Under the pieces are notes generated by a model. It ran no database searches. It was given only the letters and a program-made list of their open reading frames with translations, and was not told where the DNA came from. The position numbers and the translations under genes were made by a program. A DNA stretch of 64,000 bases from Candidatus Latescibacterota bacterium (GTDB taxonomy: Bacteria; Latescibacterota; UBA2968): assembly GCA_965207885.1 (NCBI GenBank), contig OZ242311.1, positions 4,384,001 through 4,448,000 on the forward strand. The letters are read 5' to 3'. Shown piece after piece: positions 2,777-46,594 of the stretch; position 1 is the stretch's first letter; each line of letters starts with the position of its first letter.

Positions 2777-4152
2777 TGGGTTATATGGAAGGACTAACGC
2801 TATCAGATGTAATTGAATCAACCCGAGGCCACTGGACCGGAAGGAATGAGCCCTCCGCTATTGTACCAACAGGGGTCAGTATTGATACGCGGACACTCAA
2901 ACCAGGCGAAATTTTCTTTGCATTGCCCGGCGAAAAGGTCGATGGTCACCAATTTTTGGACGCTGCATTTGATAGGGGAGCCTGTGCTGCAGTGGTTATC
3001 AGATCTGGTGCTCGAGAATCGCGGCAAGCACTGATCGCCGTCGATGCACCAGATTTAGCCCTGGGTGATCTGGCGCGGTTTTATCGCAGGCGTTTCGACA
3101 TTCCCGTTATTGGCATTACGGGTAGCAGTGGCAAAACCACCACTAAAGATATGGTCGCTGCTGTTTTGAGCACTCGGTATCGGGTTTTGGCTACACAGGG
3201 AAATCTCAATAACAGACTGGGAGTGCCGCTCACCTTATTCAAATTGTCAGCCCATTGCGATGTCGCAGTTATTGAAATGGGCATTAGCGAACGCGGCGGG
3301 ATGCGCTATCTGTGCGAAATTGCGCAACCAACCATCGGCATGATAACCAATATCGGACCAGCACATATCGAGTTTTTCGGCTCTGTAGAGGGTGTGGCAA
3401 AAGCCAAAGGGGAACTTCTGGAATATCTAGACGAGTCTTCTATGACTATCTTGAATCTCGATGACCTGTTTTTGTCCAAGGAGCGAGCAAAAGTTAAGGG
3501 GAGACTCCTGGGCATTGGCATCGAGCAGATATGTCAGTTTCGTGGGGAGGGACTCAAACTGGATCAGAAGGGCTTTGGTCATTTCTCTCTACAGGGCCAT
3601 TCTTTTCACCTATCAATTCCGGGCAAGCACAATGTGTATAACGCGCTGATGGCCGCAACGGCAGGTTGGGCTCTCGATGTGCCCCTACAAGATGCGGCAA
3701 GAGCACTTGAAAATTTTACGCTGACCAAATTGAGAAGTCAGGTACTGGAACACAATGGGATCCGCATGATCAACGACACGTACAACGCCAACCCCGCGTC
3801 GATGCGGGCAGCCCTTGAGACCCTATCGCAAATTGAGGTGGATGGTCGTCGGATTGCAGTAGTAGGCGATATGCGGGAATTAGGAGCAATGACCTACGAC
3901 GCACATCGGGAATTGGGGCGCGAAGTGGGCAATCGGCAAATTGACGCACTTTTCGCGCTGGGCGACCTGGCGCCAGTCGTCGTTGAAGGGGGACGCGAAG
4001 CAGGCATAGATCAGGCGTGGGCTTATGCAGATCGGGATGCGTTAACCGGGGCATTGCAGACTTATTTGAAACCCGGAGATTTGATGCTCATCAAGGGATC
4101 GCGCAGCATTGCAATGGAAAGAATAGTTACAGCATTGGGGTTTGAAATGTAG
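2776..4152 (+). CDS. murF: UDP-N-acetylmuramoyl-tripeptide--D-alanyl-D-alanine ligase
   Basis: ITGSSGKTTTKD, GNLNN, NDTYNANP, GDMRELG, KGSR motifs; TGATG overlap with murE stop (alternative ATG 2785). Confidence 0.96.
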   Translation: MGYMEGLTLSDVIESTRGHWTGRNEPSAIVPTGVSIDTRTLKPGEIFFALPGEKVDGHQFLDAAFDRGACAAVVIRSGARESRQALIAVDAPDLALGDLARFYRRRFDIPVIGITGSSGKTTTKDMVAAVLSTRYRVLATQGNLNNRLGVPLTLFKLSAHCDVAVIEMGISERGGMRYLCEIAQPTIGMITNIGPAHIEFFGSVEGVAKAKGELLEYLDESSMTILNLDDLFLSKERAKVKGRLLGIGIEQICQFRGEGLKLDQKGFGHFSLQGHSFHLSIPGKHNVYNALMAATAGWALDVPLQDAARALENFTLTKLRSQVLEHNGIRMINDTYNANPASMRAALETLSQIEVDGRRIAVVGDMRELGAMTYDAHRELGREVGNRQIDALFALGDLAPVVVEGGREAGIDQAWAYADRDALTGALQTYLKPGDLMLIKGSRSIAMERIVTALGFEM

Positions 4153-4165
4153 GACGAGGGGACCC

Positions 4166-4186
4166 CCCTCACCTCTTACTTCTCAA
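4166..4186. repeat. Degenerate heptamer tandem repeat (CCCTCAC CTCTTAC TTCTCAA)
   Basis: 7-bp periodicity in the murF-ftsW spacer; resembles reverse complement of the repeat at 11101-11130. Confidence 0.4.
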
Positions 4187-4195
4187 CCTTATTTT

Positions 4196-5401
4196 ATGAC
4201 ACTGACAAACGAACAAAGATATGATCGAACCTGGATTCTGTTGCTGCTCATTGTGGTTATGCTGGTGGGCTTTGGTACAGTGATAGTGTATAGTGCCAGT
4301 TCTGGATTGGCACAACTGCGATTTGACAACAGCAATTTTTTTCTCAACCGCTGGGTCATTCGCATGGCCATCAGTTTGGTTGTGATGGTTCTGCTGATTC
4401 ACATAGACTATCGCGTCTGGCGCAAACAGGCGCGTTTGATGCTGGCGATAGCTTTTGCTTTTTTGCTCGTGGTGCTCATCCTTAAGCTATTTGGCATTGG
4501 CGGGGTGCGAGGTGCATATCGCTGGATACCATTGCCAGGTGGGCAATTTCAACCTGCCGACATGATGCGCATAGTTCTGGTGCTTTACCTGGCCGATTCC
4601 CTGACGCGCCGCCAGGATGTAATTGAAAATTTCAAATCGGGCTTTTTACCCCATGGCGTGGTAATCGGCACGGCAATGGTGATGATTTTGATACAACCCG
4701 ATTTGGGTACAGCGATGGCAATTGGGTTGGCCTGTGCCTTGATGCTCTATCTGGGCGGGGTGCGACTGCGACACCTCATGGCGACTTTCGCAGGTCTTTT
4801 ACCCGTTCTGTATGTGATTGTTTTTGTTTTTGGGTATCGCCGCGAGCGCGTAATGACGTTTATATTTCCCAGCGACGATGTGCAAAATACGGGCTATCAG
4901 ATCGCGCAATCCCTTCTCGCCCTGGGCAGTGGTGGATTTTGGGGCACGGGCCTGGGACAGGGCCAGCAAAAATATTTCTTTTTGCCTGAGCCTCATACCG
5001 ATTTTGTATTTAGCATTGTGGGTGAAGAGCTCGGTTTGTGGGGCACCCTGCTCGTTTTAATTTTATTTTTAATTTTTGGGAGGTGCGGATTTCGCATTGC
5101 CCGCATAGCCCCCGATACCTTTGGTTTTCTATTCGCTTCTGGCATTACTATTTCGATCCTGATTTATGCTCTGATCAATATGGGTGTAGCTACCGGATTG
5201 CTGCCTGTCACGGGACTTCCCCTTCCCTTTATCAGCTACGGTGGTTCATCCTTGATGTTTACACTCTCCGCGACAGGTGTGCTCATTGGCATTGGACGGG
5301 CGAGTACTCGACACAGAACCCGTCACTCACCTGCTACATCGCAAACCGTTCCCCGGCACGCGATGTATAAACGGCATCACCTCATCATTCCCCGACGTTG
5401 A
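4196..5401 (+). CDS. ftsW: SEDS family peptidoglycan polymerase FtsW
   Basis: Multi-TM protein with RW, FQP, QPDLGT, GYQ, LPEPHTDF, GEELG, PFISYGGSS motifs. Confidence 0.96.
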   Translation: MTLTNEQRYDRTWILLLLIVVMLVGFGTVIVYSASSGLAQLRFDNSNFFLNRWVIRMAISLVVMVLLIHIDYRVWRKQARLMLAIAFAFLLVVLILKLFGIGGVRGAYRWIPLPGGQFQPADMMRIVLVLYLADSLTRRQDVIENFKSGFLPHGVVIGTAMVMILIQPDLGTAMAIGLACALMLYLGGVRLRHLMATFAGLLPVLYVIVFVFGYRRERVMTFIFPSDDVQNTGYQIAQSLLALGSGGFWGTGLGQGQQKYFFLPEPHTDFVFSIVGEELGLWGTLLVLILFLIFGRCGFRIARIAPDTFGFLFASGITISILIYALINMGVATGLLPVTGLPLPFISYGGSSLMFTLSATGVLIGIGRASTRHRTRHSPATSQTVPRHAMYKRHHLIIPRR

Positions 5402-39460: not shown

Positions 39461-40030
39461 ATGTTCAACTGGCTCAAAAAACTATTCGCCCCTCCTGTCG
39501 AACACCTGCCGCAACTCGAAATGTTTCGCGACCACCTCAATAACCTGCCCGAAATTCAGCAAATTACCGGTTATGCCACACGTACCTATCGTTCGGGTGA
39601 CGAAGCCGCCTGGTGTCGCATCATGGAAGGCAATGTAGGCAGCAACTGGACAACGGAGAAATGCCGAGCACAATTGATTCGCGATCCCCGCTTCCAGACA
39701 GAGAACCTCTTTTTCATCACCCACAACGACGACCCTATAGCCAGTGCGTGTGCCTGGAAAACACCCGGCCAATCGCCGGAAACAGGTGAAGTTCACATGG
39801 TCGCCGCGCACGCAGACCACCGCGGCAAAGGACTCGGGCATTTGCTCAACGCCCTCGTCCTCCATCGCTTAAAAGATCTGGGCTATCAAAAAGCACATCT
39901 CAAAACCGATGACTGGCGCCTACCGGCTATCAAAACCTACCTCGACGCGGGCTTCCAGCCCCTCAACACCCACGAAAGCCACCCCGAACGCTGGGAAGCC
40001 ATCTTCGCCCAGCTAAAAATTAAAAAATAA
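39461..40030 (+). CDS. GNAT family N-acetyltransferase
   Basis: V....RGKGLG acetyl-CoA motif, R.PAI.TY...GF. Confidence 0.85.
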   Translation: MFNWLKKLFAPPVEHLPQLEMFRDHLNNLPEIQQITGYATRTYRSGDEAAWCRIMEGNVGSNWTTEKCRAQLIRDPRFQTENLFFITHNDDPIASACAWKTPGQSPETGEVHMVAAHADHRGKGLGHLLNALVLHRLKDLGYQKAHLKTDDWRLPAIKTYLDAGFQPLNTHESHPERWEAIFAQLKIKK

Positions 40031-40035
40031 CCTCC

Positions 40036-41034
40036 TCACCCCATCAACGCATTATACCCCATCCCCATCACCTCCTTGACGTGTTCCAGTGTGCGTTGCC
40101 CTTCAATACGCGCCCTCGAACCGCCCAGATTCAAAATATCGCGCACCAGATCGGACTGTTCTTCAAAACCCTTGCGACGTATCCGAAACGGCGTCATAAA
40201 ATCATTCAGCACATCTGCCAACGCGCCTTTACACGTCGTACAGCCAACCGAACCACTGCGGCAGTCCCTTGCCACCTGCTCGGCATTCTCTTCATCAAAC
40301 ACCTCTCGATAGTGAAATGCCGAACACACACCGGGATTTCCCGGATCAGTTGCCCGCACCCGCCCCGGATCGGTAACCATATTCATCACCTTTGCCCGCA
40401 CAGACGTTTCTCTATCCGACAAATCAATAGCATTGCCGTAGCTCTTCCCCATCTTACTCTGACCATCTGTGCCCTTCAAGCGCGTGCCATAAACGCCATC
40501 GGGAATGGGAAACACCTCGCCATAAATCCGATTAAATCGCGCAGCCACTTCCTGCGCCAGTTCAATATGGGGTCTTTGATCTGGCCCCACCGGCACATAT
40601 CGCGGACGAAAAAGCAAAATATCCGCCGCCTGAGACACCGGATATCCCACAAACCCGTAAGGCACCCGATTCCCCAACCCCATCTTACCCATCTCTTCCT
40701 TAACCGTTGGATTCCGCAACAAACGCGGCAACGTCACCAAATTGGAAAAAATCATGGTTAACTCTGCCAGTTGCGGCACCTGTGATTGCAAAAAACAAAC
40801 GCTTTTTTTGGGATCAAATCCCGCCGCCAGATAATCCAGCACCATTTCTCTGACGTGATGCTCCAGATCTTCTGTCCGATCCCGATGCGTCGTCAGCGCC
40901 TGATAATCGGCAATCATAAAAAAACACTGAAACTCATCCTGCATCTCAAACCGATTCTTCAACGACCCGACATAATGCCCCAAATGCATTTTACCCGTCG
41001 GGCGATCACCTGTTAAAACAATTGTGCGACTCAT
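40036..41034 (-). CDS. trpS: Tryptophan--tRNA ligase
   Basis: TGDRPTG..HLGH (HIGH), YPVSQAADI, VPVG.DQ, KMGKS (KMSKS variant); SD AAGGA. Confidence 0.96.
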   Translation of the reverse strand: MSRTIVLTGDRPTGKMHLGHYVGSLKNRFEMQDEFQCFFMIADYQALTTHRDRTEDLEHHVREMVLDYLAAGFDPKKSVCFLQSQVPQLAELTMIFSNLVTLPRLLRNPTVKEEMGKMGLGNRVPYGFVGYPVSQAADILLFRPRYVPVGPDQRPHIELAQEVAARFNRIYGEVFPIPDGVYGTRLKGTDGQSKMGKSYGNAIDLSDRETSVRAKVMNMVTDPGRVRATDPGNPGVCSAFHYREVFDEENAEQVARDCRSGSVGCTTCKGALADVLNDFMTPFRIRRKGFEEQSDLVRDILNLGGSRARIEGQRTLEHVKEVMGMGYNALMG

Positions 41035-41225
41035 GTCTGTTCCTTTCTTTGAACTATTAAAAATCCATAATTTCCAAAAAAAAAGCGCGCCACCTTCCGG
41101 TAGCGCGCGGTGCAAGCAAACAAAGATCGCCAGATATCCGGTGGTGGACATACATCTCCCATTGCGCCTGTCCACCACCAGCGTCTGCCAACATTAAACA
41201 GCTCTGTCATCGCACTCAAAAACAT
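41031..41225 (-). CDS. Putative trpS leader peptide 2 (RRWWW), stop overlapping trpS start (ATGA)
   Basis: Three consecutive TGG codons (41172-41180) inside one arm of an 11-bp perfect inverted repeat; start 41225 or 41210. Confidence 0.65.
   Translation of the reverse strand: MFLSAMTELFNVGRRWWWTGAMGDVCPPPDIWRSLFACTARYRKVARFFFGNYGFLIVQRKEQT
41076..41108 (-). terminator. Intrinsic terminator/attenuator 2 of trpS leader
   Basis: GCGCGCUACC-GGAA-GGUGGCGCGC followed by U9. Confidence 0.85.
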
Positions 41226-41239
41226 CGCATACCTACTAC

Positions 41240-41272
41240 AAAAAAAACCGCCGTCAAAAAGCCGACGGCGGT
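41240..41272 (-). terminator. Intrinsic terminator/attenuator 1 of trpS leader
   Basis: ACCGCCGUC(GG)-loop-(UU)GACGGCGGU followed by a U run. Confidence 0.85.
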
Positions 41273-41303
41273 CAATTCAGAATTCTCAAATAAATACAAT
41301 CCG

Positions 41304-41414
41304 TCAGCAAACCCACACAGCGGCACGCCACCAACCACGGACGGTTTCAGACACACGGGGAGCCAGCACCCTATCGGGCGTCGCATCAGTCAAAATGTGA
41401 TCGCGCATAATCAT
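41304..41414 (-). CDS. Putative trpS leader peptide 1 (36 aa, ...RGWWRAAVWVC)
   Basis: SD GGGAG 6 nt before ATG; tandem Trp codons near C-terminus; stop lies in a segment complementary to the terminator 5' arm. Confidence 0.7.
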   Translation of the reverse strand: MIMRDHILTDATPDRVLAPRVSETVRGWWRAAVWVC

Positions 41415-41442
41415 AACAAACTCCCGTGAAATATCGCCAATG

Positions 41443-41471
41443 AAAATAACGACTTCCACACCTCGTGTCAA
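41443..41471 (-). promoter_or_regulatory. Sigma70-like promoter of trpS leader
   Basis: TTGACA-17bp-TATTTT; -35 overlaps the stop codon of the upstream gene. Confidence 0.7.
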
Positions 41472-41488
41472 GCCGTTTGCTCTTCTTT
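41443..41488. repeat. Direct repeat copy A (gene 3' end plus promoter)
   Basis: GTCAAGCCGTTTG(C)TCTTCTTT matches 44961-44982 at 21/22 nt; similarity extends over the promoter. Confidence 0.8.
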
Positions 41489-42952
41489 CCGCACAAACCG
41501 GAACGAGTACAGCTTTGCCGACCGCATCACGACGCGAAGCCGCAGCGGTCCTCGATCCGTGGGGATCCGGCGGCCAGCCCCCTGCCACGACACGCCTGCC
41601 TTGATTGCATTGGCGACAATCGTCTCGCACGTCTTCAGCGTGTAGCCTTCCACGGGGCGCCCCTCTTCGTCCTGCAGTTCGACCAGCAACCAGCCGCCCC
41701 CGCCACAATCCACATTCAATTCGAGCGCCTGGCCGTCGAACGCCAGCGGCGGTGTCACAAACTCTCCGCCAGAGAGAGACGCATCCGCCGAGATAAAACC
41801 ATCCCGCCTCAGGATCGCCCGGAACAGACCGGTGTTCCAACCGTCGCGCACCTCATCATTGTGCCGACTTCCCCTCCCCGAATAGTAGATCCACATCTCG
41901 GTCTCGGTAAGCACGGGCCAGACATTGGCCATCACCATACCACCCGATGGTCCCCCATCCAGCCCCCGGCGGATAAACGGCTCCCGGTCTCCCTGACGCG
42001 ACCATATGATCCCGTCACGGCTCGTGAGGAGCCGGACATCCATTGTGGCCGGGAAATCAGAGGCTTCCCAGTGGTAGTAAGCGGCGGGCATCATAAAGTA
42101 CGCATCATCCGCCTCGGGATGTTTGTAAACCGCGTTCGTGTAGTAGTCAACCTGCGGCCTGTCCATTGACCGGGGAGGCAGAGGGGCTTCCAGGTCCAGC
42201 GCATCTCCCTCCAGAACGATCAGCGTGGGCTGCGACCAGGTCTTAAAGTCGGGCGACGTGATCCGGCCAACGGACCGGTACCGCTTTCCGAGCTTCATTT
42301 CCGCCGCCTCGTCCCGTCGCTGGGTCTCGTGTACCCGCGTATAGCCGACGTAGAGGTCCAGGCTGTCATCCCAGAAAAAAACATTTTGAGTGTCGCACAT
42401 CTGGTTGGGCGGATTCGGCTGGCCCTCATCATACGTCCAATGGATCCCGTCGGGCGAATGCATGGCCCAAAGCCCCGGCAGAACACCGGCCTCGATCTCA
42501 TCATCCCTGGGATAGTACTTCGACCAGAGCCGGTAGCGCGAATCGGCGGGCGCGCGTTCGTCTATATAAACCGTCGCGCCCTGCATACTCTGACGCTCAT
42601 CCAGCGGGGCGACGATGTTGTTGGCGGTGCTACCCTGGAACGTGACGAGGTGCATCTCCGGCTTCTGCCAGGAGACCCCGTCTTCGGACTCCGCATAGCA
42701 GAGACGAACCGCCCCTTCCTGCGGACCTCCCGATTTCATCTGTGCGCCGTACCAGAGCCGGAAGTGCCGCTCCCCTTCCCGGATCACCGTGTTGTACGCC
42801 CCAATCCCGAGCTTCTCCCACGGCTTGTCCGCCCGGAGCACCGGCTCGGGGGACTGCAAAGGCGGATTCATACGGAGATTGACACCAGAGACTCGATCAA
42901 AGAAGCGCGCGTCAATGAAAAGCTGTTTCCGGCTCCCAACCTGGACGGCCAT
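41468..42952 (-). CDS. Hypothetical beta-propeller glycoside-hydrolase-like protein
   Basis: KQLFID, CYAESEDG..W.KP, S.DG..W Asp-box-like repeats, C-terminal LR.DGF...TPP...L.LN...LYSF domain; SD AGGAAGGAG. Confidence 0.65.
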   Translation of the reverse strand: MAVQVGSRKQLFIDARFFDRVSGVNLRMNPPLQSPEPVLRADKPWEKLGIGAYNTVIREGERHFRLWYGAQMKSGGPQEGAVRLCYAESEDGVSWQKPEMHLVTFQGSTANNIVAPLDERQSMQGATVYIDERAPADSRYRLWSKYYPRDDEIEAGVLPGLWAMHSPDGIHWTYDEGQPNPPNQMCDTQNVFFWDDSLDLYVGYTRVHETQRRDEAAEMKLGKRYRSVGRITSPDFKTWSQPTLIVLEGDALDLEAPLPPRSMDRPQVDYYTNAVYKHPEADDAYFMMPAAYYHWEASDFPATMDVRLLTSRDGIIWSRQGDREPFIRRGLDGGPSGGMVMANVWPVLTETEMWIYYSGRGSRHNDEVRDGWNTGLFRAILRRDGFISADASLSGGEFVTPPLAFDGQALELNVDCGGGGWLLVELQDEEGRPVEGYTLKTCETIVANAIKAGVSWQGAGRRIPTDRGPLRLRVVMRSAKLYSFRFVRKEEQTA

Positions 42953-43016
42953 GAGATACTCCTTCCTATTGTCGATGCCAACTACAAAAAGTTTGCCTGA
43001 TCCATCCTGTACATCC

Positions 43017-43964
43017 CTACTCACACGCAAGAGCGGCCAACAAAGCTTTGATATACCCGACTGAGTAGGCGAGCGCATGGGTATTGCCAGCAGGCCCATC
43101 TCCTTCAAGCGTCGGATAGTGATCGGGATTCAGACAGCCGTCGTAACCCACCCGCTTCAGTTCGCGCAGGATCTTGAACATGTTCATGTCCCCATCGTCG
43201 AGCAGGACCTCTTCGAACGCACCGGCAGTTGCAAAGCTCGCCCGTACATTTCGAAAGTGAACCTCGAAGAGACGTCCCTTTCGCCCGTAGTTGTGAATCT
43301 CGTCCAGGACGAGTGGGAGTCCTCCAGCCTCCGCGCGTGTCCCACAACAGTAGAGGTAACCGACACACGGGTTCGGAAAGGCATCGATCACCCGGTGGAA
43401 TCCCAGCCCGCCGAAGAGCGCATCCTGCGTCGGCGGATCGGAGGGATGCATCATCAGTCTGACGCCTGCGGCTTCCGCGACGGGTACGAGCCGTTCGTAA
43501 GCCGCACAGACACGTCCCCACCGCTGCTCCCGCACTGCTATGGCCGGCGGCTCGTCCCCTTCTGCGAGTGACAGACTATCCCCTCGAGCCAGGTATCCGC
43601 CACGGTGCGATGCCCGATAGTGTCCAATCATCCAGGGATCTGTGGAATAGTCGAAGTGCACCCGTCCGAGAGGATAGCCTGCTTCGCCAAGGACCTGGAC
43701 GGACTCGCACGCGACATCGAGCTCTTCCTCAGCCCCATCCTCTTCGTCCATGAACCGCTTCGATAGACCGGGCAAACTGATGCGATTCACCTGCAGACCC
43801 CAGGAATGAACCTGTTTCTTCATTTTCAGTGCCTCGTCCAGATCGAAAACGCCACGGTCATCGGTCGGCAATGGCAGGGCATCAACGCAATCGACGCCCA
43901 GCTGGGTTAGCTGGCGCAACGTCGCGTCGGACGGGTCTTGACACCAGGCAGCTACTTTGATCAT
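43017..43964 (-). CDS. Mannonate dehydratase (UxuA)-like protein
   Basis: LVPVAE.AGV.L..HP.DPP, HFRNV, F.E....DGD..M, PDH.P, AY.VGY motifs. Confidence 0.8.
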   Translation of the reverse strand: MIKVAAWCQDPSDATLRQLTQLGVDCVDALPLPTDDRGVFDLDEALKMKKQVHSWGLQVNRISLPGLSKRFMDEEDGAEEELDVACESVQVLGEAGYPLGRVHFDYSTDPWMIGHYRASHRGGYLARGDSLSLAEGDEPPAIAVREQRWGRVCAAYERLVPVAEAAGVRLMMHPSDPPTQDALFGGLGFHRVIDAFPNPCVGYLYCCGTRAEAGGLPLVLDEIHNYGRKGRLFEVHFRNVRASFATAGAFEEVLLDDGDMNMFKILRELKRVGYDGCLNPDHYPTLEGDGPAGNTHALAYSVGYIKALLAALACE

Positions 43965-45403: not shown

Positions 45404-46594
45404 CTAACTCCTCGGATAAAACACATCCACCAGAGTCTCCACATCATCCCATGCACACAAAAATCGCTCTTCAAATCCGCGATGGATATTGTGCTCAACC
45501 TCTGTCTCGTCGGGCAGCGGGAACACAATCGTCTCTCGATCGGCCTCAATTGACGCATTCACCGCCAGACTCATCTCCTGATCCAACCGCCCCATCGCAG
45601 CACCGTAATCCGGCTCGCGATCTTCTCGAACAGCATTGGCAATACTCAACAACTCATCTGCCACAGCCACTTGCCCTTCACTCAGCGCATAGTTTGCAAA
45701 TGGATTCTCCCACGCAATCGCACCGCCGGGCAACTCATAGCGAATCTCGCGCAACACATTTACCCCATCTACTGTTTCCGTCACGCGCACGGGTTCATAA
45801 GCCACACCCTGTGCGCCGGTTTCCAATTCGTCCTTTGGCACAACATACACATTGCCATCCACAATGCTGCCCGCTGTCCCGTCAATCTCATCCATACCCG
45901 CTTGCTTGCGCCCGAGTGAACGCGCGTGAATCACATTGGAATACACCATCAGCGCGGCCACATCATTATCAAATTCCAAAAAACTCAAACTCCATCTTTC
46001 CAACTCGTGATGCCGCTTCATGCGATCTATATGCGGAATCACGGGCGTTGTATGGCTCAACCCAATCACCTGCCTGGGATTGCCACCGGCCAACACGCGC
46101 AACAAACTCATCCCGTGATACCCACCCTCGTGGCATATCCGATAGATCCGTCCAATCTCTCCGATAACATCTGATACGAGTACCTTCTTCTTTAACCGCT
46201 CAATCGGCGCGCGATAATAATTCTCGGCGACCTCCAGATAAACGCCCGCATCTCGCGCAGCTCGAATCATCATATCTGATGCCGGTCGAGTCATAGCAAT
46301 GGGGGTCTCCACAACCTGATGCACACCTGCTTGCGCCAAAAAACAGCAAATCGCATGGTGTGCCACACCTGGCACTACCACATCGGCAACATCGATATCT
46401 TCATTATCGACCAGGTCCCGCACACTCGTATAAGCCTTTACCCCGTGTTCTGCTGCCAAACTCTGGGCTGTTTCCTCATCCTTATCGCAAATGGCGACAA
46501 AGTCAAAAACATCTGCCAACTGCACAATCACAGGCAAATGCGCCCCTGCGCCGCGCCGCCCGGCACCCACAAGTGCAATTTTGAGACGATCCAT
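45404..46594 (-). CDS. Gfo/Idh/MocA family oxidoreductase
   Basis: KIALVGAG..G, ETP, AENY, GYHG. Confidence 0.85.
   Translation of the reverse strand: MDRLKIALVGAGRRGAGAHLPVIVQLADVFDFVAICDKDEETAQSLAAEHGVKAYTSVRDLVDNEDIDVADVVVPGVAHHAICCFLAQAGVHQVVETPIAMTRPASDMMIRAARDAGVYLEVAENYYRAPIERLKKKVLVSDVIGEIGRIYRICHEGGYHGMSLLRVLAGGNPRQVIGLSHTTPVIPHIDRMKRHHELERWSLSFLEFDNDVAALMVYSNVIHARSLGRKQAGMDEIDGTAGSIVDGNVYVVPKDELETGAQGVAYEPVRVTETVDGVNVLREIRYELPGGAIAWENPFANYALSEGQVAVADELLSIANAVREDREPDYGAAMGRLDQEMSLAVNASIEADRETIVFPLPDETEVEHNIHRGFEERFLCAWDDVETLVDVFYPRS

Follow-up and report, generated by a model that had tools for sequence, protein, structure and literature searches.

Two tryptophan-rich leader ORFs, each followed by its own terminator, stand in tandem before trpS in an uncultured Latescibacterota bacterium

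Introduction

Why should a single tryptophanyl-tRNA synthetase gene be preceded by two tryptophan-rich leader ORFs, one after the other, each with a terminator of its own? To our knowledge, almost all described cases of leader-peptide attenuation, a textbook mechanism, are single units, and they come from few phyla. According to PMC2965389, demonstrations of such systems were limited to Proteobacteria and Actinobacteria until their discovery in Firmicutes. The locus that raises the question belongs to an uncultured Latescibacterota bacterium, and an earlier note on its sequence read it as two unrelated Trp attenuators in series. In this paper we study that locus within a stretch of 64,000 nucleotides, which we call the window, and in the corresponding loci of related genomes. 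We find that the interpretation as tandem Trp attenuators is supported, and we describe the switch that the two modules probably form.

Results

Anatomy of the locus

All elements lie on the minus strand, in the order sigma-70-like promoter, leader ORF 1, terminator T1, leader ORF 2, terminator T2, trpS. Leader ORF 1 and T1 belong to module 1, and leader ORF 2 and T2 to module 2. In each module, region 1 and region 2 denote the two segments whose pairing competes with pairing to the terminator. The features are as follows.

41443..41471, minus strand: sigma-70-like promoter, TTGACA (41471-41466), 17-nt spacer, TATTTT (41448-41443), agreeing with the consensus at 10 of 12 positions
41421..41425, minus strand: Shine-Dalgarno-like GGGAG, 6 nt 5' of the leader-1 ATG
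41304..41414, minus strand: leader ORF 1, 36 codons plus stop, ATG at 41414, TGA at 41306-41304, peptide ending RGWWRAAVWVC*
41340..41344, minus strand: module 1 region 1 (CCGUC), which can pair with GACGG of region 2
41301..41308, minus strand: module 1 region 2, GCUGACGG, holding the leader-1 stop, invariant in 18 of 18 sequences
41240..41273, minus strand: terminator T1, 12-pair stem (41273-41246) and U8 (41247-41240), containing CCGUCGGC, the antiterminator partner of region 2
41031..41225, minus strand: frame of leader ORF 2, 64 aa in the window, ATG at 41225, UGG UGG UGG at 41180-41172 (UGGUGGUGG), CCA CCA CCG (Pro-Pro-Pro) at 41147-41139
41138..41181, minus strand: module 2 hairpin 1:2, 5' arm CUGGUGGUGGACA (41181-41169, with the Trp codons), 3' arm UGUCCACCACCGG (41150-41138), which is region 2
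41076..41108, minus strand: terminator T2, GCGCGCUACC-GGAA-GGUGGCGCGC and U9 (41084-41076), stem at 41108-41085 with 10 pairs, 8 of them G-C, and a GGAA loop
41090..41100, minus strand: CCGGAAGGUGG, the alternative partner of region 2 within T2
40036..41034, minus strand: trpS, ATG at 41034, a full-length class I TrpRS of 332 aa with HLGH and KMGKS motifs

The tandem arrangement of Trp-rich leader ORFs and terminators before trpS is thereby confirmed at these coordinates. The promoter, both leaders, both terminators and the alternative pairings of each module had all been proposed by the earlier note, and all are present where it placed them. In module 1, the stop-bearing segment GCUGACGG (41308-41301) pairs with CCGUCGGC (41268-41261) in the 5' arm of T1 over 8 bp. 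In module 2, CUGGUGGUGGACA pairs with UGUCCACCACCGG, and CCACC-A-CCGG (41147-41138) can instead pair with CCGG-AA-GGUGG (41100-41090), giving 9 bp with a bulge. The start of leader 2 needs amending: of the two positions given, 41225 has an ATG in 18 of 18 sequences, but the relatives do not keep the one at 41210. An internal ATG in the hairpin loop (GGGAGAUGUAUG) was considered as the start of a third ORF and rejected, as the two ATGs differ in frame and neither is present throughout.

The stop codon of an upstream 546-aa ORF (41470-41468) falls within the -35 hexamer. In leader 1 the adjacent Trp codons, UGG UGG, occupy 41333-41328, and a third UGG lies at 41315-41313. The frame of leader 2 runs through T2 and ends overlapping the trpS ATG, and its region 2 spells Pro-Pro-Pro; the earlier note had remarked on neither point. 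In the whole window, trpS is the one Trp-specific gene.

Both modules are conserved among relatives

We compared the window with 17 Latescibacterota relatives (L001-L017), whose TrpRS proteins are 73-99 % identical. Both modules occur in 17 of the 17 relatives, and T1 and T2 are found in all 18 sequences, with folding energies of -17 to -22 kcal/mol and U-runs of 7-9. The earlier note had made its reading depend on conserved Trp codons and stems, and these are kept in every relative.

Conservation is higher at the elements that the proposed mechanism would use. At the columns singled out by the earlier note, 288 of 303 comparisons with the three relatives L006, L007 and L017 are identical, against 487 of 800 elsewhere in the leader (Fisher p about 1e-34, to be read with the caveat that L007 and L017 are sisters, so that the comparisons are non-independent). 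Broken down by element, identity to these divergent relatives is 93-100 % for the start codons, the Trp codons, region 2, the arms of the terminators and the U-runs. For the rest of the leader it is 55-66 %, close to the neutral level as judged by the fourfold sites of trpS (65-66 %).

In module 1, the GG of the Shine-Dalgarno sequence and the leader-1 ATG are invariant (18/18). The leader contains WW in all 18 sequences and WWW in five, and its third Trp codon is replaced by a stop in three. The stop codon that ends leader 1 lies inside GCUGACGG in 15 of 18 sequences, and 9 nt upstream of it in L003, L005 and L014. In module 2, the Trp codons are in frame in all 18 sequences (WWW in 13, WWS in 5), and region 2 reads as Pro-Pro-Pro in every one. 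In none of the 18 does a stop codon interrupt this frame ahead of the last U of T2, and in that respect module 2 departs from the classical design. Among the relatives the frame is kept only for about the first 36 codons; a 4-nt indel after codon ~36 shifts it in 11 of the 18. The Shine-Dalgarno sequence of leader 2 is weak in the main clade (AGG, GGA or GAGA) and good only in L006, L007 and L017 (GGAGGA, GAGGA).

The two modules are, as had been claimed, unrelated to one another: their best local alignment scores 19, compared with 17.2 +/- 2.6 for shuffled sequences. We therefore reject the idea that module 2 is a copy of module 1.

Pairing and folding

All six helices that we counted are paired in 90-100 % of cells. 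The GCUGACGG:CCGUCGGC antiterminator of module 1 is paired in 100 % of 144 cells and the T1 helix in 99.1 % of 216 (-17 to -20 kcal/mol). The corresponding figures for module 2 are 96.2 % of 234 for hairpin 1:2 (-12 to -24 kcal/mol), 100 % of 162 for the antiterminator and 99.4 % of 180 for T2. The region 1:2 helix of module 1 is paired in 90 % of cells; it is kept in the 15 sequences of the main clade and broken at three of its five pairs in L006, L007 and L017. The alignment that had been proposed in search of conserved Trp codons and covarying stems thus bore out conservation but not covariation, which is almost nil, with one compensatory cell in all six helices (in hairpin 1:2 of module 2). 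Changes on one side that preserve pairing do occur: L007 and L017 have U-A for U-G in the antiterminator, and G-U replaces G-C elsewhere. RNAalifold added nothing decisive; a long-range pairing that it drew between region 2 and the start region of leader 1 is rich in G-U pairs, and we set it aside. Since the relatives are close and covariation is almost nil, it is conservation by itself that carries the structural argument.

The 410-nt leader folds at -148.5 kcal/mol, compared with -126.2 +/- 5.5 for shuffled sequences (z = -4.05; 0 of 100 shuffles as low). Antiterminators at -8 to -13 kcal/mol are weaker than terminators at -17 to -22, which is the usual energy order. When the nascent RNA ends before the 3' arm of T1 and a ribosome is placed on the second UGG of leader 1, 17 of 18 sequences form the helix between region 2 and the T1 5' arm. 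With the ribosome on the leader-1 stop this pairing is impossible, as a consequence of the constraint imposed on the fold. The module-2 antiterminator is thermodynamically weak, and is the minimum free energy (MFE) structure in only two of five sequences tested; because it takes part of the 3' arm of T2, it cannot fully form in advance. In the constrained folding that had been suggested, the module-1 antiterminator appears in nascent RNA, but full-length MFE folds retain both terminators whichever of the tested ribosome positions is imposed (5 sequences for each module). Since both terminators persist even with the ribosome masked in, folding at equilibrium cannot show a switch, and any switch would have to be kinetic.

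Coding signals in the two leaders

Indels in leader 1 are all multiples of 3 (12, 3 and 3 nt), and those 3' of its stop measure 1-6 nt. At its three codon positions 15, 17 and 18 of 36 columns vary, which gives no codon-position signal, and synonymous variants are not in excess (12 of 45, for an expected fraction of 0.24). The lack of a codon-position signal is expected of a peptide that serves only as a sensor, yet it gives no positive proof of translation. In leader 2, on the other hand, synonymous variants are in excess (13 of 34, for an expected fraction of 0.21; p = 0.016), and the same counts in the other two frames, 5 of 31 and 7 of 34, show none. We also considered a TnaC-like arrest peptide and dropped it; the spacing of W, D and P does not fit.

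A probable two-step switch

Given this anatomy, we infer that both ORFs are translated, that ribosomes stall on their Trp codons, and that a single transcript carries both modules. That transcript would start about 7 nt past the -10 hexamer, which ends at 41443. With Trp-tRNA(Trp) in good supply, a ribosome would reach the leader-1 stop and, the stop being inside GCUGACGG, would mask region 2 as it terminates; T1 would then form, and RNA polymerase would stop near 41240. When charging is low, the ribosome would stall at UGG UGG, 22-25 nt upstream. Region 1 sits under a ribosome stalled there, so that region 1 would be covered and region 2 free to pair with the 5' arm of T1, and transcription would go on.

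Module 2 would by default sequester its three Trp codons with CCACCACCGG in a 13-bp hairpin, and T2 would form. A ribosome stalled on UGGUGGUGG would free CCACCACCGG, which would compete for the CCGG..GGUGG of T2. Because leader 2 has no stop before T2, we propose that the Pro-Pro-Pro codons of its region 2 may hold an unstalled ribosome, in the role that a stop codon plays in the classical design. For the same reason a closely following ribosome could suppress T2 even when Trp is plentiful.

Since transcripts must escape both terminators, expression would be roughly multiplicative. That is, it would approximate the product of two read-through probabilities, with a very low basal level, a steeper response and, in effect, the logic of an AND gate. 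The pair of modules is thus probably a two-step switch that turns trpS on only when charged tRNA-Trp is low.

Alternative readings of the pair

Depending on where transcription of module 2 begins, the two modules need not act on the same RNA. Only module 2 might regulate trpS, from a promoter missed by our scan, while module 1 formed a separate promoter-to-terminator unit, possibly giving an attenuator-derived small RNA or peptide that acts in trans; such products of a Trp attenuator are reported as rnTrpL and peTrpL of Sinorhizobium. Alternatively, T1 might serve to end upstream transcription, and indeed in the window T1 is the first terminator that follows the 546-aa ORF. Module 1 does have its own promoter and strong terminator, and the spacing from the T1 U-run to the leader-2 ATG varies from 14 to 238 nt through insertions. 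It is only 14 nt, however, in 11 of the 18 sequences. A separate promoter between T1 and trpS had been named as the finding that would make module 1 an independent small gene. Our scan with a sigma-70 consensus, which may not be the consensus of this phylum, found no conserved promoter-like site there: between T2 and trpS it found none in 18 sequences, and between T1 and the leader-2 ATG none in 15, the exceptions being L004, L009 and L006. In L004 and L009 the site ends about 3-4 nt 5' of the ATG, so near that transcripts from it would lack a ribosome-binding site. Ahead of leader 1, by contrast, the same scan (with the same reservation about the consensus) finds a promoter in 16 of 18 sequences and nothing recognisable in L007 and L017. 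L016 retains this promoter although a different gene lies upstream, and the unit from promoter to trpS stays together despite the differing upstream gene in both L016 and L007. A peptide acting in trans is further disfavoured by the lack of any detected amino-acid-level constraint on leader 1. We regard separation of the modules as unlikely, while granting it some real chance of being correct.

Even on a single transcript, module 2 might not be ribosome-mediated as we propose. The UGGUGGUGG/CCACCACC hairpin and T2 could be controlled by a protein or by tRNA-Trp, in the manner of TRAP or a T-box, or the logic could be reversed, with a coupled ribosome translating through T2 and blocking termination when Trp is plentiful. 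The stop-less frame, the weak Shine-Dalgarno sequence of the main clade and the weak antiterminator all speak for this family of readings, as do UGG-containing motifs, found in region 1 and in the 3' arm of T2. Yet the ATG is invariant and the Trp codons are in frame throughout, the synonymous excess is restricted to the frame of leader 2, and the divergent relatives have the better Shine-Dalgarno sequence. The classical logic, moreover, needs just the three-way complementarity that links region 1, region 2 and the T2 arm, and under reversed logic a shortage of Trp would shut down a TrpRS gene. A search of 40700-41800 against Rfam listed 11 matches at E up to 10, and neither a T-box (RF00230) nor another family that would account for module 2 is among them. 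We consider these readings of module 2 improbable. That two ordinary constitutive terminators merely insulate trpS from upstream transcription, behind Trp-rich ORFs that arose fortuitously, is highly improbable, despite the absence of covariation and despite the frequency of TGGTGG in this genome (62 sites, compared with 37.8 expected from shuffles). Constitutive terminators between a conserved promoter and its gene would silence the gene. Of 544 small ORFs in the window (beginning with ATG, 15-80 aa, six frames), 13 contain WW and three WWW, both leaders included; hairpins of at most -14.6 kcal/mol followed by a T-run of at least 7 occur at five sites in the 64 kb. The two leaders lie exactly before two of these five strongest terminators, T1 and T2, and ahead of trpS. 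The other five TGGTGGTGG sites of the window fall inside longer open frames and are read as Val or Gly codons, and conservation covers the Trp codons, the start codons and the stop within region 2 but not the columns beside them. Taking these comparisons together, we favour, with moderate confidence, a single transcript with two independent ribosome-mediated transcription attenuators in series ahead of trpS.

Discussion

Relation to known attenuators

The proposed pair of attenuators may be compared with single Trp attenuators and with other tandem leaders. As in the E. coli trpL type, Trp codons stand side by side in a short ORF, an intrinsic terminator follows, and the antiterminator draws on the 5' arm of that terminator; in module 1 the leader stop also lies in region 2. 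The differences are that the E. coli type controls a biosynthetic operon rather than a tRNA synthetase gene, that two units stand in series here, and that module 2 has no stop before its terminator. The leader is also longer: leader 1 has 36 codons, whereas that of E. coli trpL has 14 residues (PMC4007540). The Rfam model of the Trp leader, RF00513, matches module 1 over its full length at 41241-41339, with 18.8 bits and an E-value of 0.67. Since this score is below the gathering threshold of 41, module 1 is not a member of the family by sequence. Module 2 has no RF00513 match even at a permissive threshold (40700-41800), and at the gathering level nothing in the whole window matches any Rfam family.

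Closer in the gene controlled are the trpS attenuators of Streptomyces. Vecchione and Sello (2010) reportedly dealt with an auxiliary, antibiotic-resistant TrpRS gene of Streptomyces, and in PMC1262725 an attenuator is predicted upstream of S. avermitilis trpS2. Ribosome-mediated Trp attenuation of a TrpRS gene, as proposed here, would be common to both cases, the gene being there described as a second, auxiliary copy. A further likeness is that the window TrpRS is closest to solved TrpRS II chains and that its relatives tolerate loss of a catalytic motif. The Streptomyces attenuators are described as single and belong to another phylum; the present leader has two modules.

Tandem arrangement is itself known from the Salmonella mgtCBR leader, in which, according to PMC3641672, two attenuators, mgtM and mgtP, respond to two different signals. 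There too, one 5' leader holds two short ORFs, each with alternative stem-loops, acting independently and with a combined effect. The mgtCBR leader senses ATP and Pro-tRNA, its stem-loops are unlike intrinsic terminators and its activations are additive, whereas in the present locus Trp codons occur in both ORFs and a canonical terminator follows each of them. The same source puts the reach of the ribosome at 12-15 nt from the P site. Two complete units or terminators also stand in series in one leader in tandem T-boxes (PMC7583486), in tandem riboswitches and in the rimP-leader, which has two terminators one after the other (PMC2965389). These elements, however, either sense tRNA or metabolites directly by RNA or have no assigned signal, and none of them is a pair of leader-peptide sensors. 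The earlier note knew of no described example of the present design, and our search of full-text literature, which covered few subscription journals, likewise found no description of two leader-peptide attenuators for the same amino acid in series; the closest cases are the single Trp attenuators and mgtCBR.

An independent parallel comes from Methylomirabilota. The trpS homologues in L022, L026 and L027, whose TrpRS belongs to the same clade (45-51 % identical), are preceded by a WWW leader ORF followed by hairpins, with a clear U-run terminator in L022 whose loop contains GGAAGG. Unlike the locus studied here, they have one leader ORF only, and it ends WWWP(P/L)(Q/D)*, with its stop 2-3 codons past the Trp run. 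A covariance model of module 2, run on the window and 21 loci from outside Latescibacterota, gave nothing convincing beyond one weak match in L022 (24.8 bits, rough E 0.001); it had no match at the L026 and L027 leaders, and it also matched weakly at window positions 45455-45533 (E 0.24). Homology of the Methylomirabilota leader to module 2 is therefore at most tentative.

The controlled gene

The window TrpRS matches Pfam PF00579 and scores 272.2 bits on TIGR00233, against a cut-off of 176.75. Its best solved relatives, 2a4m and 1yi8, are named 'Tryptophanyl-tRNA synthetase II' (E about 4e-88). It has four cysteines, at 237, 258, 265 and 268.

In 10 of the 17 relatives the gene behind the same leaders encodes a TrpRS with an internal deletion that lacks the KMSKS motif. 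These short forms (248 aa) score 192.7 bits on TIGR00233.

More speculatively, the whole could be a two-stage sensor of a new design, in which stage 1 is a classical Trp attenuator and stage 2, stop-less, relies on an EF-P-dependent polyproline pause over region 2, so that it would sense elongation capacity together with Trp-tRNA charging. The controlled gene would then be no housekeeping synthetase but an accessory TrpRS paralogue induced by starvation or an inhibitor, in which KMSKS has been lost repeatedly (and once HIGH as well) under purifying selection; that is, a Trp-responsive pseudo-synthetase with a non-catalytic role. We doubt that this extended reading holds in full, and offer it as a tentative idea.

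Significance

A clade of an uncultured phylum has retained, one behind the other, two putative Trp sensors that are unrelated in sequence, each with a canonical terminator. Should both of them work, the pair would be a translational counterpart of tandem riboswitches and tandem T-boxes, and its output, as the product of two read-through probabilities, would combine a very tight off state with a sharp threshold. Designers of synthetic circuits would also gain a compact, protein-free part. Leader 2 would provide a natural test of attenuation driven by a leader ORF without a stop. Finally, the gene under control deserves attention in its own right, for in more than half of the relatives what stands behind the same switch is a conserved TrpRS that lacks KMSKS.

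Two tandem modules precede trpS

The earlier note had described a series of features at 41031-41471 on the minus strand, and we found each of them at its place. The presence of two tandem modules upstream of trpS, each consisting of a leader ORF and a terminator, is thus confirmed.

Features of the trpS leader
41471-41466 and 41448-41443, minus strand: promoter-like site, TTGACA and TATTTT 17 nt apart, 10/12 consensus positions
41414 (ATG) to 41306-41304 (UGA), minus strand: leader ORF 1, 36 codons (MIMRDHILTDATPDRVLAPRVSETVRGWWRAAVWVC), GGGAG 6 nt 5' of the ATG
41308-41301, minus strand: module 1 region 2, GCUGACGG, with the leader-1 UGA inside
41273-41246, minus strand: terminator T1, 12-pair stem, with eight U at 41247-41240
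41225, minus strand: start of leader ORF 2, 14 nt past T1; UGG UGG UGG at 41180-41172
41108-41085, minus strand: terminator T2, ten pairs (eight G-C), GGAA loop, with nine U at 41084-41076
41034, minus strand: ATG of trpS

The 410-nt leader folds at -148.5 kcal/mol, compared with -126.2 +/- 5.5 kcal/mol for shuffled sequences (z = -4.05; 0/100 shuffles equal). The -35 hexamer and the stop codon of a 546-aa ORF (41468-43108, minus strand) overlap; the ORF is conserved and has no Pfam or NCBIfam match. This ORF has no terminator of its own ahead of the leader promoter, and so its transcripts would enter leader 1 and T1. On the other side, a GNAT acetyltransferase gene (39461-40036) converges on trpS; the two stop codons are 5 nt apart, and the gap holds no terminator-like site. 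In the main clade of 15 sequences, the leader-2 start is overlapped by a mini-ORF of five codons (ATG CGA TGT TTT TGA, 41216-41230, minus strand), which is missing in the divergent relatives L006, L007 and L017.

The TGGTGG motif is not rare by itself (62 sites versus 37.8 expected), and therefore the case rests on the full configuration before trpS, together with its conservation. Among 544 ATG-initiated ORFs of 15-80 aa in the six frames of the window, 13 contain WW and three WWW, both leaders included; the remaining five TGGTGGTGG sites sit in longer open frames, as Val or Gly codons. Hairpins of at most -14.6 kcal/mol followed by at least seven T are rare, occurring at only five sites in the window, including T1 and T2, which lie 163 nt apart. 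No Trp-specific gene other than trpS was found in the window.

Conservation among relatives

Scanning genomes with the TrpRS protein gave 38 loci: 17 from Latescibacterota MAGs (L001-L017; 73-99 % best-segment identity), and 21 from other phyla or unclassified bacteria (43-51 %). Both modules, as judged by T1, T2, the GCUGACGG motif and the leader-2 start, are present at 17/17 Latescibacterota loci. Counting the window, leader 1 retains WW in 18/18 sequences and has WWW in five; its third Trp codon has become a stop in L003, L005 and L014, and is thus dispensable as a sensor. Leader 2 carries WWW in 13/18 sequences and WWS in 5/18.

We compared the window with L006, L007 and L017, the most divergent relatives, at the columns that the model of the earlier note, applied to the window, picks out: Trp codons and start codons, U-runs, region 2 and the stems of both terminators. 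These columns are identical in 288/303 cases, versus 487/800 for all other leader columns, where L007 and L017 are sisters and so do not provide independent tests. Fourfold-degenerate sites of trpS show 65-66 % identity in the same comparisons, which the figure for the other columns matches. Thus, the remainder of the leader drifts at a roughly neutral rate, while its predicted working parts stay fixed.

Leader 1 has a sigma-70-like promoter in front of it in 16/18 sequences (absent in L007 and L017). The earlier note would have abandoned a single transcript had a separate promoter stood between T1 and trpS; promoter-like sites occur between T1 and the leader-2 ATG in 3/18 sequences (L004, L009, L006), and a sigma-70-type scan found none between T2 and trpS in any of the 18. 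In L016 and L007, which have another upstream gene, the whole stretch from ~20 nt 5' of the -35 hexamer through trpS is intact. Directly upstream of the leader these two loci carry coiled-coil protein genes, four in tandem in L007 (1819-3563) and one in L016 (3037-3555), whose products have repeated KREIAE-type units and a C-terminal hydrophobic helix; NCBIfam matches of the L016 protein are weak and sub-threshold.

The distance from the T1 U-run to the leader-2 ATG is 14 nt in 11/18 sequences, and 40-238 nt in the other seven through insertions. Those in L002, L003, L012, L014 (77-90 nt) and L006 (238 nt) are lineage-specific, and L017 has an insert between T2 and trpS (~3805-3990) that resembles a G-rich tandem repeat. 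Such inserts, which split an otherwise compact leader, are candidate small mobile repeats.

The modules were proposed to be unrelated, and they align no better than shuffled sequences (local score 19 versus 17.2 +/- 2.6). Recent duplication as the source of the second module is ruled out by this lack of detectable similarity.

Alternative pairings and folding

In each module, a leader segment called region 2 can pair with an earlier segment, region 1, or else with a terminator arm as antiterminator.

Pairing across the 18 sequences (cells paired; energy in kcal/mol)
T1: 99.1 % of 216; -17 to -20
Module 1 region 1:2: 90 % of 90
Module 1 antiterminator: 100 % of 144; -10 to -13
Module 2 hairpin 1:2: 96.2 % of 234; -12 to -24
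Module 2 antiterminator: 100 % of 162; -8 to -12
T2: 99.4 % of 180; -17 to -22

The energies rank as expected of attenuators. Of the two properties anticipated for the stems in relatives, conservation holds, with pairing kept, and covariation does not: there is one compensatory cell in total across the six helices. In L007 and L017, a U-G pair of the module-1 antiterminator becomes U-A, a one-sided change that keeps the pairing. Support for the predicted helices is therefore conservation plus pairing-preserving one-sided changes, rather than covariation. The short module-1 region 1:2 helix is retained in the 15 main-clade sequences only.

Under every ribosome mask applied, the terminators persist in equilibrium folds of the full modules, so any switching would need to rely on kinetics, which is how known attenuators work. 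To look at module 1, we folded nascent RNA truncated 5' of the T1 3' arm. Pairing between region 2 and the T1 5' arm forms in 17/18 sequences if a ribosome occupies the second UGG, and in 14/18 if there is none; in these modelled folds a kinetic logic is visible. The reach of the ribosome is given as 12-15 nt from the P site (PMC3641672). The second UGG begins 22 nt ahead of region 2, which would thus be free in the stalled state; by geometry, a ribosome on the leader-1 stop codon would cover it.

Leader 2 has no stop codon ahead of T2

Module 1 shows every structural feature of an attenuator that we examined. Module 2 departs in one: its leader frame runs past the T2 U-run without a stop in 18/18 sequences. 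Stops fall 10-78 nt past the U-run in 16/18; L001 and L003 have none, their leader-2 frame continuing in phase into trpS, and read-through translation from leader 2 would there yield an N-terminally extended TrpRS. A gene-caller product in the protein collection (P0004, 301 aa) is an extended form starting within the leader.

Beyond about codon 36, a 4-nt indel alters the leader-2 frame in 11/18 sequences, which argues against selection on the distal part as coding sequence. The ATG is invariant and the Trp codons are always in frame. Among distinct single-nucleotide variants, 13/34 are synonymous versus an expected fraction of 0.21 (p = 0.016), compared with 5/31 and 7/34 in the other two frames. 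From these patterns, proximal leader 2 looks translated.

Ribosomes pause at polyproline, and region 2 of module 2 (CCACCACCGG) encodes Pro-Pro-Pro in 18/18 sequences, a frame match with a one-in-three likelihood by chance. Such a pause may replace the stop codon and keep region 2 covered by a ribosome that has not stalled. The model is weakest at the module-2 antiterminator, which is the minimum free energy structure in 2/5 sequences tested. Five bases of the T2 3' arm belong to this antiterminator, so that only nucleation (CCGG with CCGG) could occur before the terminator is complete.

Comparative evidence supports the attenuator interpretation, under which the element would act like a serial pair of classical attenuators. 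We regard it as moderately probable that the two modules both sense Trp as attenuators and act on a single transcript.

Comparison with known systems

Single Trp attenuators are classical. Attenuators have been predicted upstream of trpS in Streptomyces (PMC1262725), and leader peptides before tRNA synthetase genes in Deinococcus (PMC4007540). Serial arrangements include tandem riboswitches, tandem T-boxes (PMC7583486) and a rimP-leader with two terminators (PMC2965389). Salmonella mgtCBR has two leader ORFs in one leader, 'a singular example' in its authors' words; as described there, these sense different signals and involve no intrinsic terminators (PMC3641672). Full-text literature searches of incomplete coverage found no two leader-peptide attenuators for one amino acid in series.

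Three Methylomirabilota loci (L022 ~3820-4000, L027 ~3230-3346, L026 ~60-182) have a single leader ORF before a homologous trpS. It ends in WWWP(P/L)(Q/D)* and is followed by GC-rich hairpins, and in L022 also by a clear terminator with a U-run; the module-2 model matches one of the three (L022), weakly. This arrangement has the look of a single Trp attenuator, in a phylum other than that of the window.

Truncated forms of trpS

The TrpRS of the window is full length (HLGH, KMGKS, four Cys) and passes TIGR00233; its closest solved relatives, 2a4m and 1yi8 (E ~4e-88), are named 'Tryptophanyl-tRNA synthetase II'. Behind the same two leaders, trpS encodes only 245-248 aa in 10/17 relatives (L008-L016, locus 4001-4744, where L012 ends at a contig edge; L017, 4001-4735), and 330-332 aa in the others. 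The short forms have lost residues ~196-279 by an in-frame deletion (window 40198-40449), including KMGKS (the KMSKS motif) and the whole set of four Cys. Nine relatives share one junction, and L017 has a different one. In the gene tree, long forms are mixed with short ones, and at least two independent deletions are required. The short forms fall into at least eight 90 %-identity protein clusters, and dN/dS is 0.10 in long-long, short-short and mixed pairs. Two further TrpRS-related proteins are reduced: P0045 (234 aa, on an 8-Mb contig) lacks the HIGH motif too, and P0032 (273 aa) keeps KMGKS and lacks the Cys region alone.

Genomes with a short form must have another TrpRS, and thus the attenuated trpS is likely, if unproven, to be an accessory paralogue. 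The auxiliary TrpRS gene of Streptomyces is reportedly under ribosome-mediated attenuation, and would offer a parallel if the attenuated trpS is accessory.
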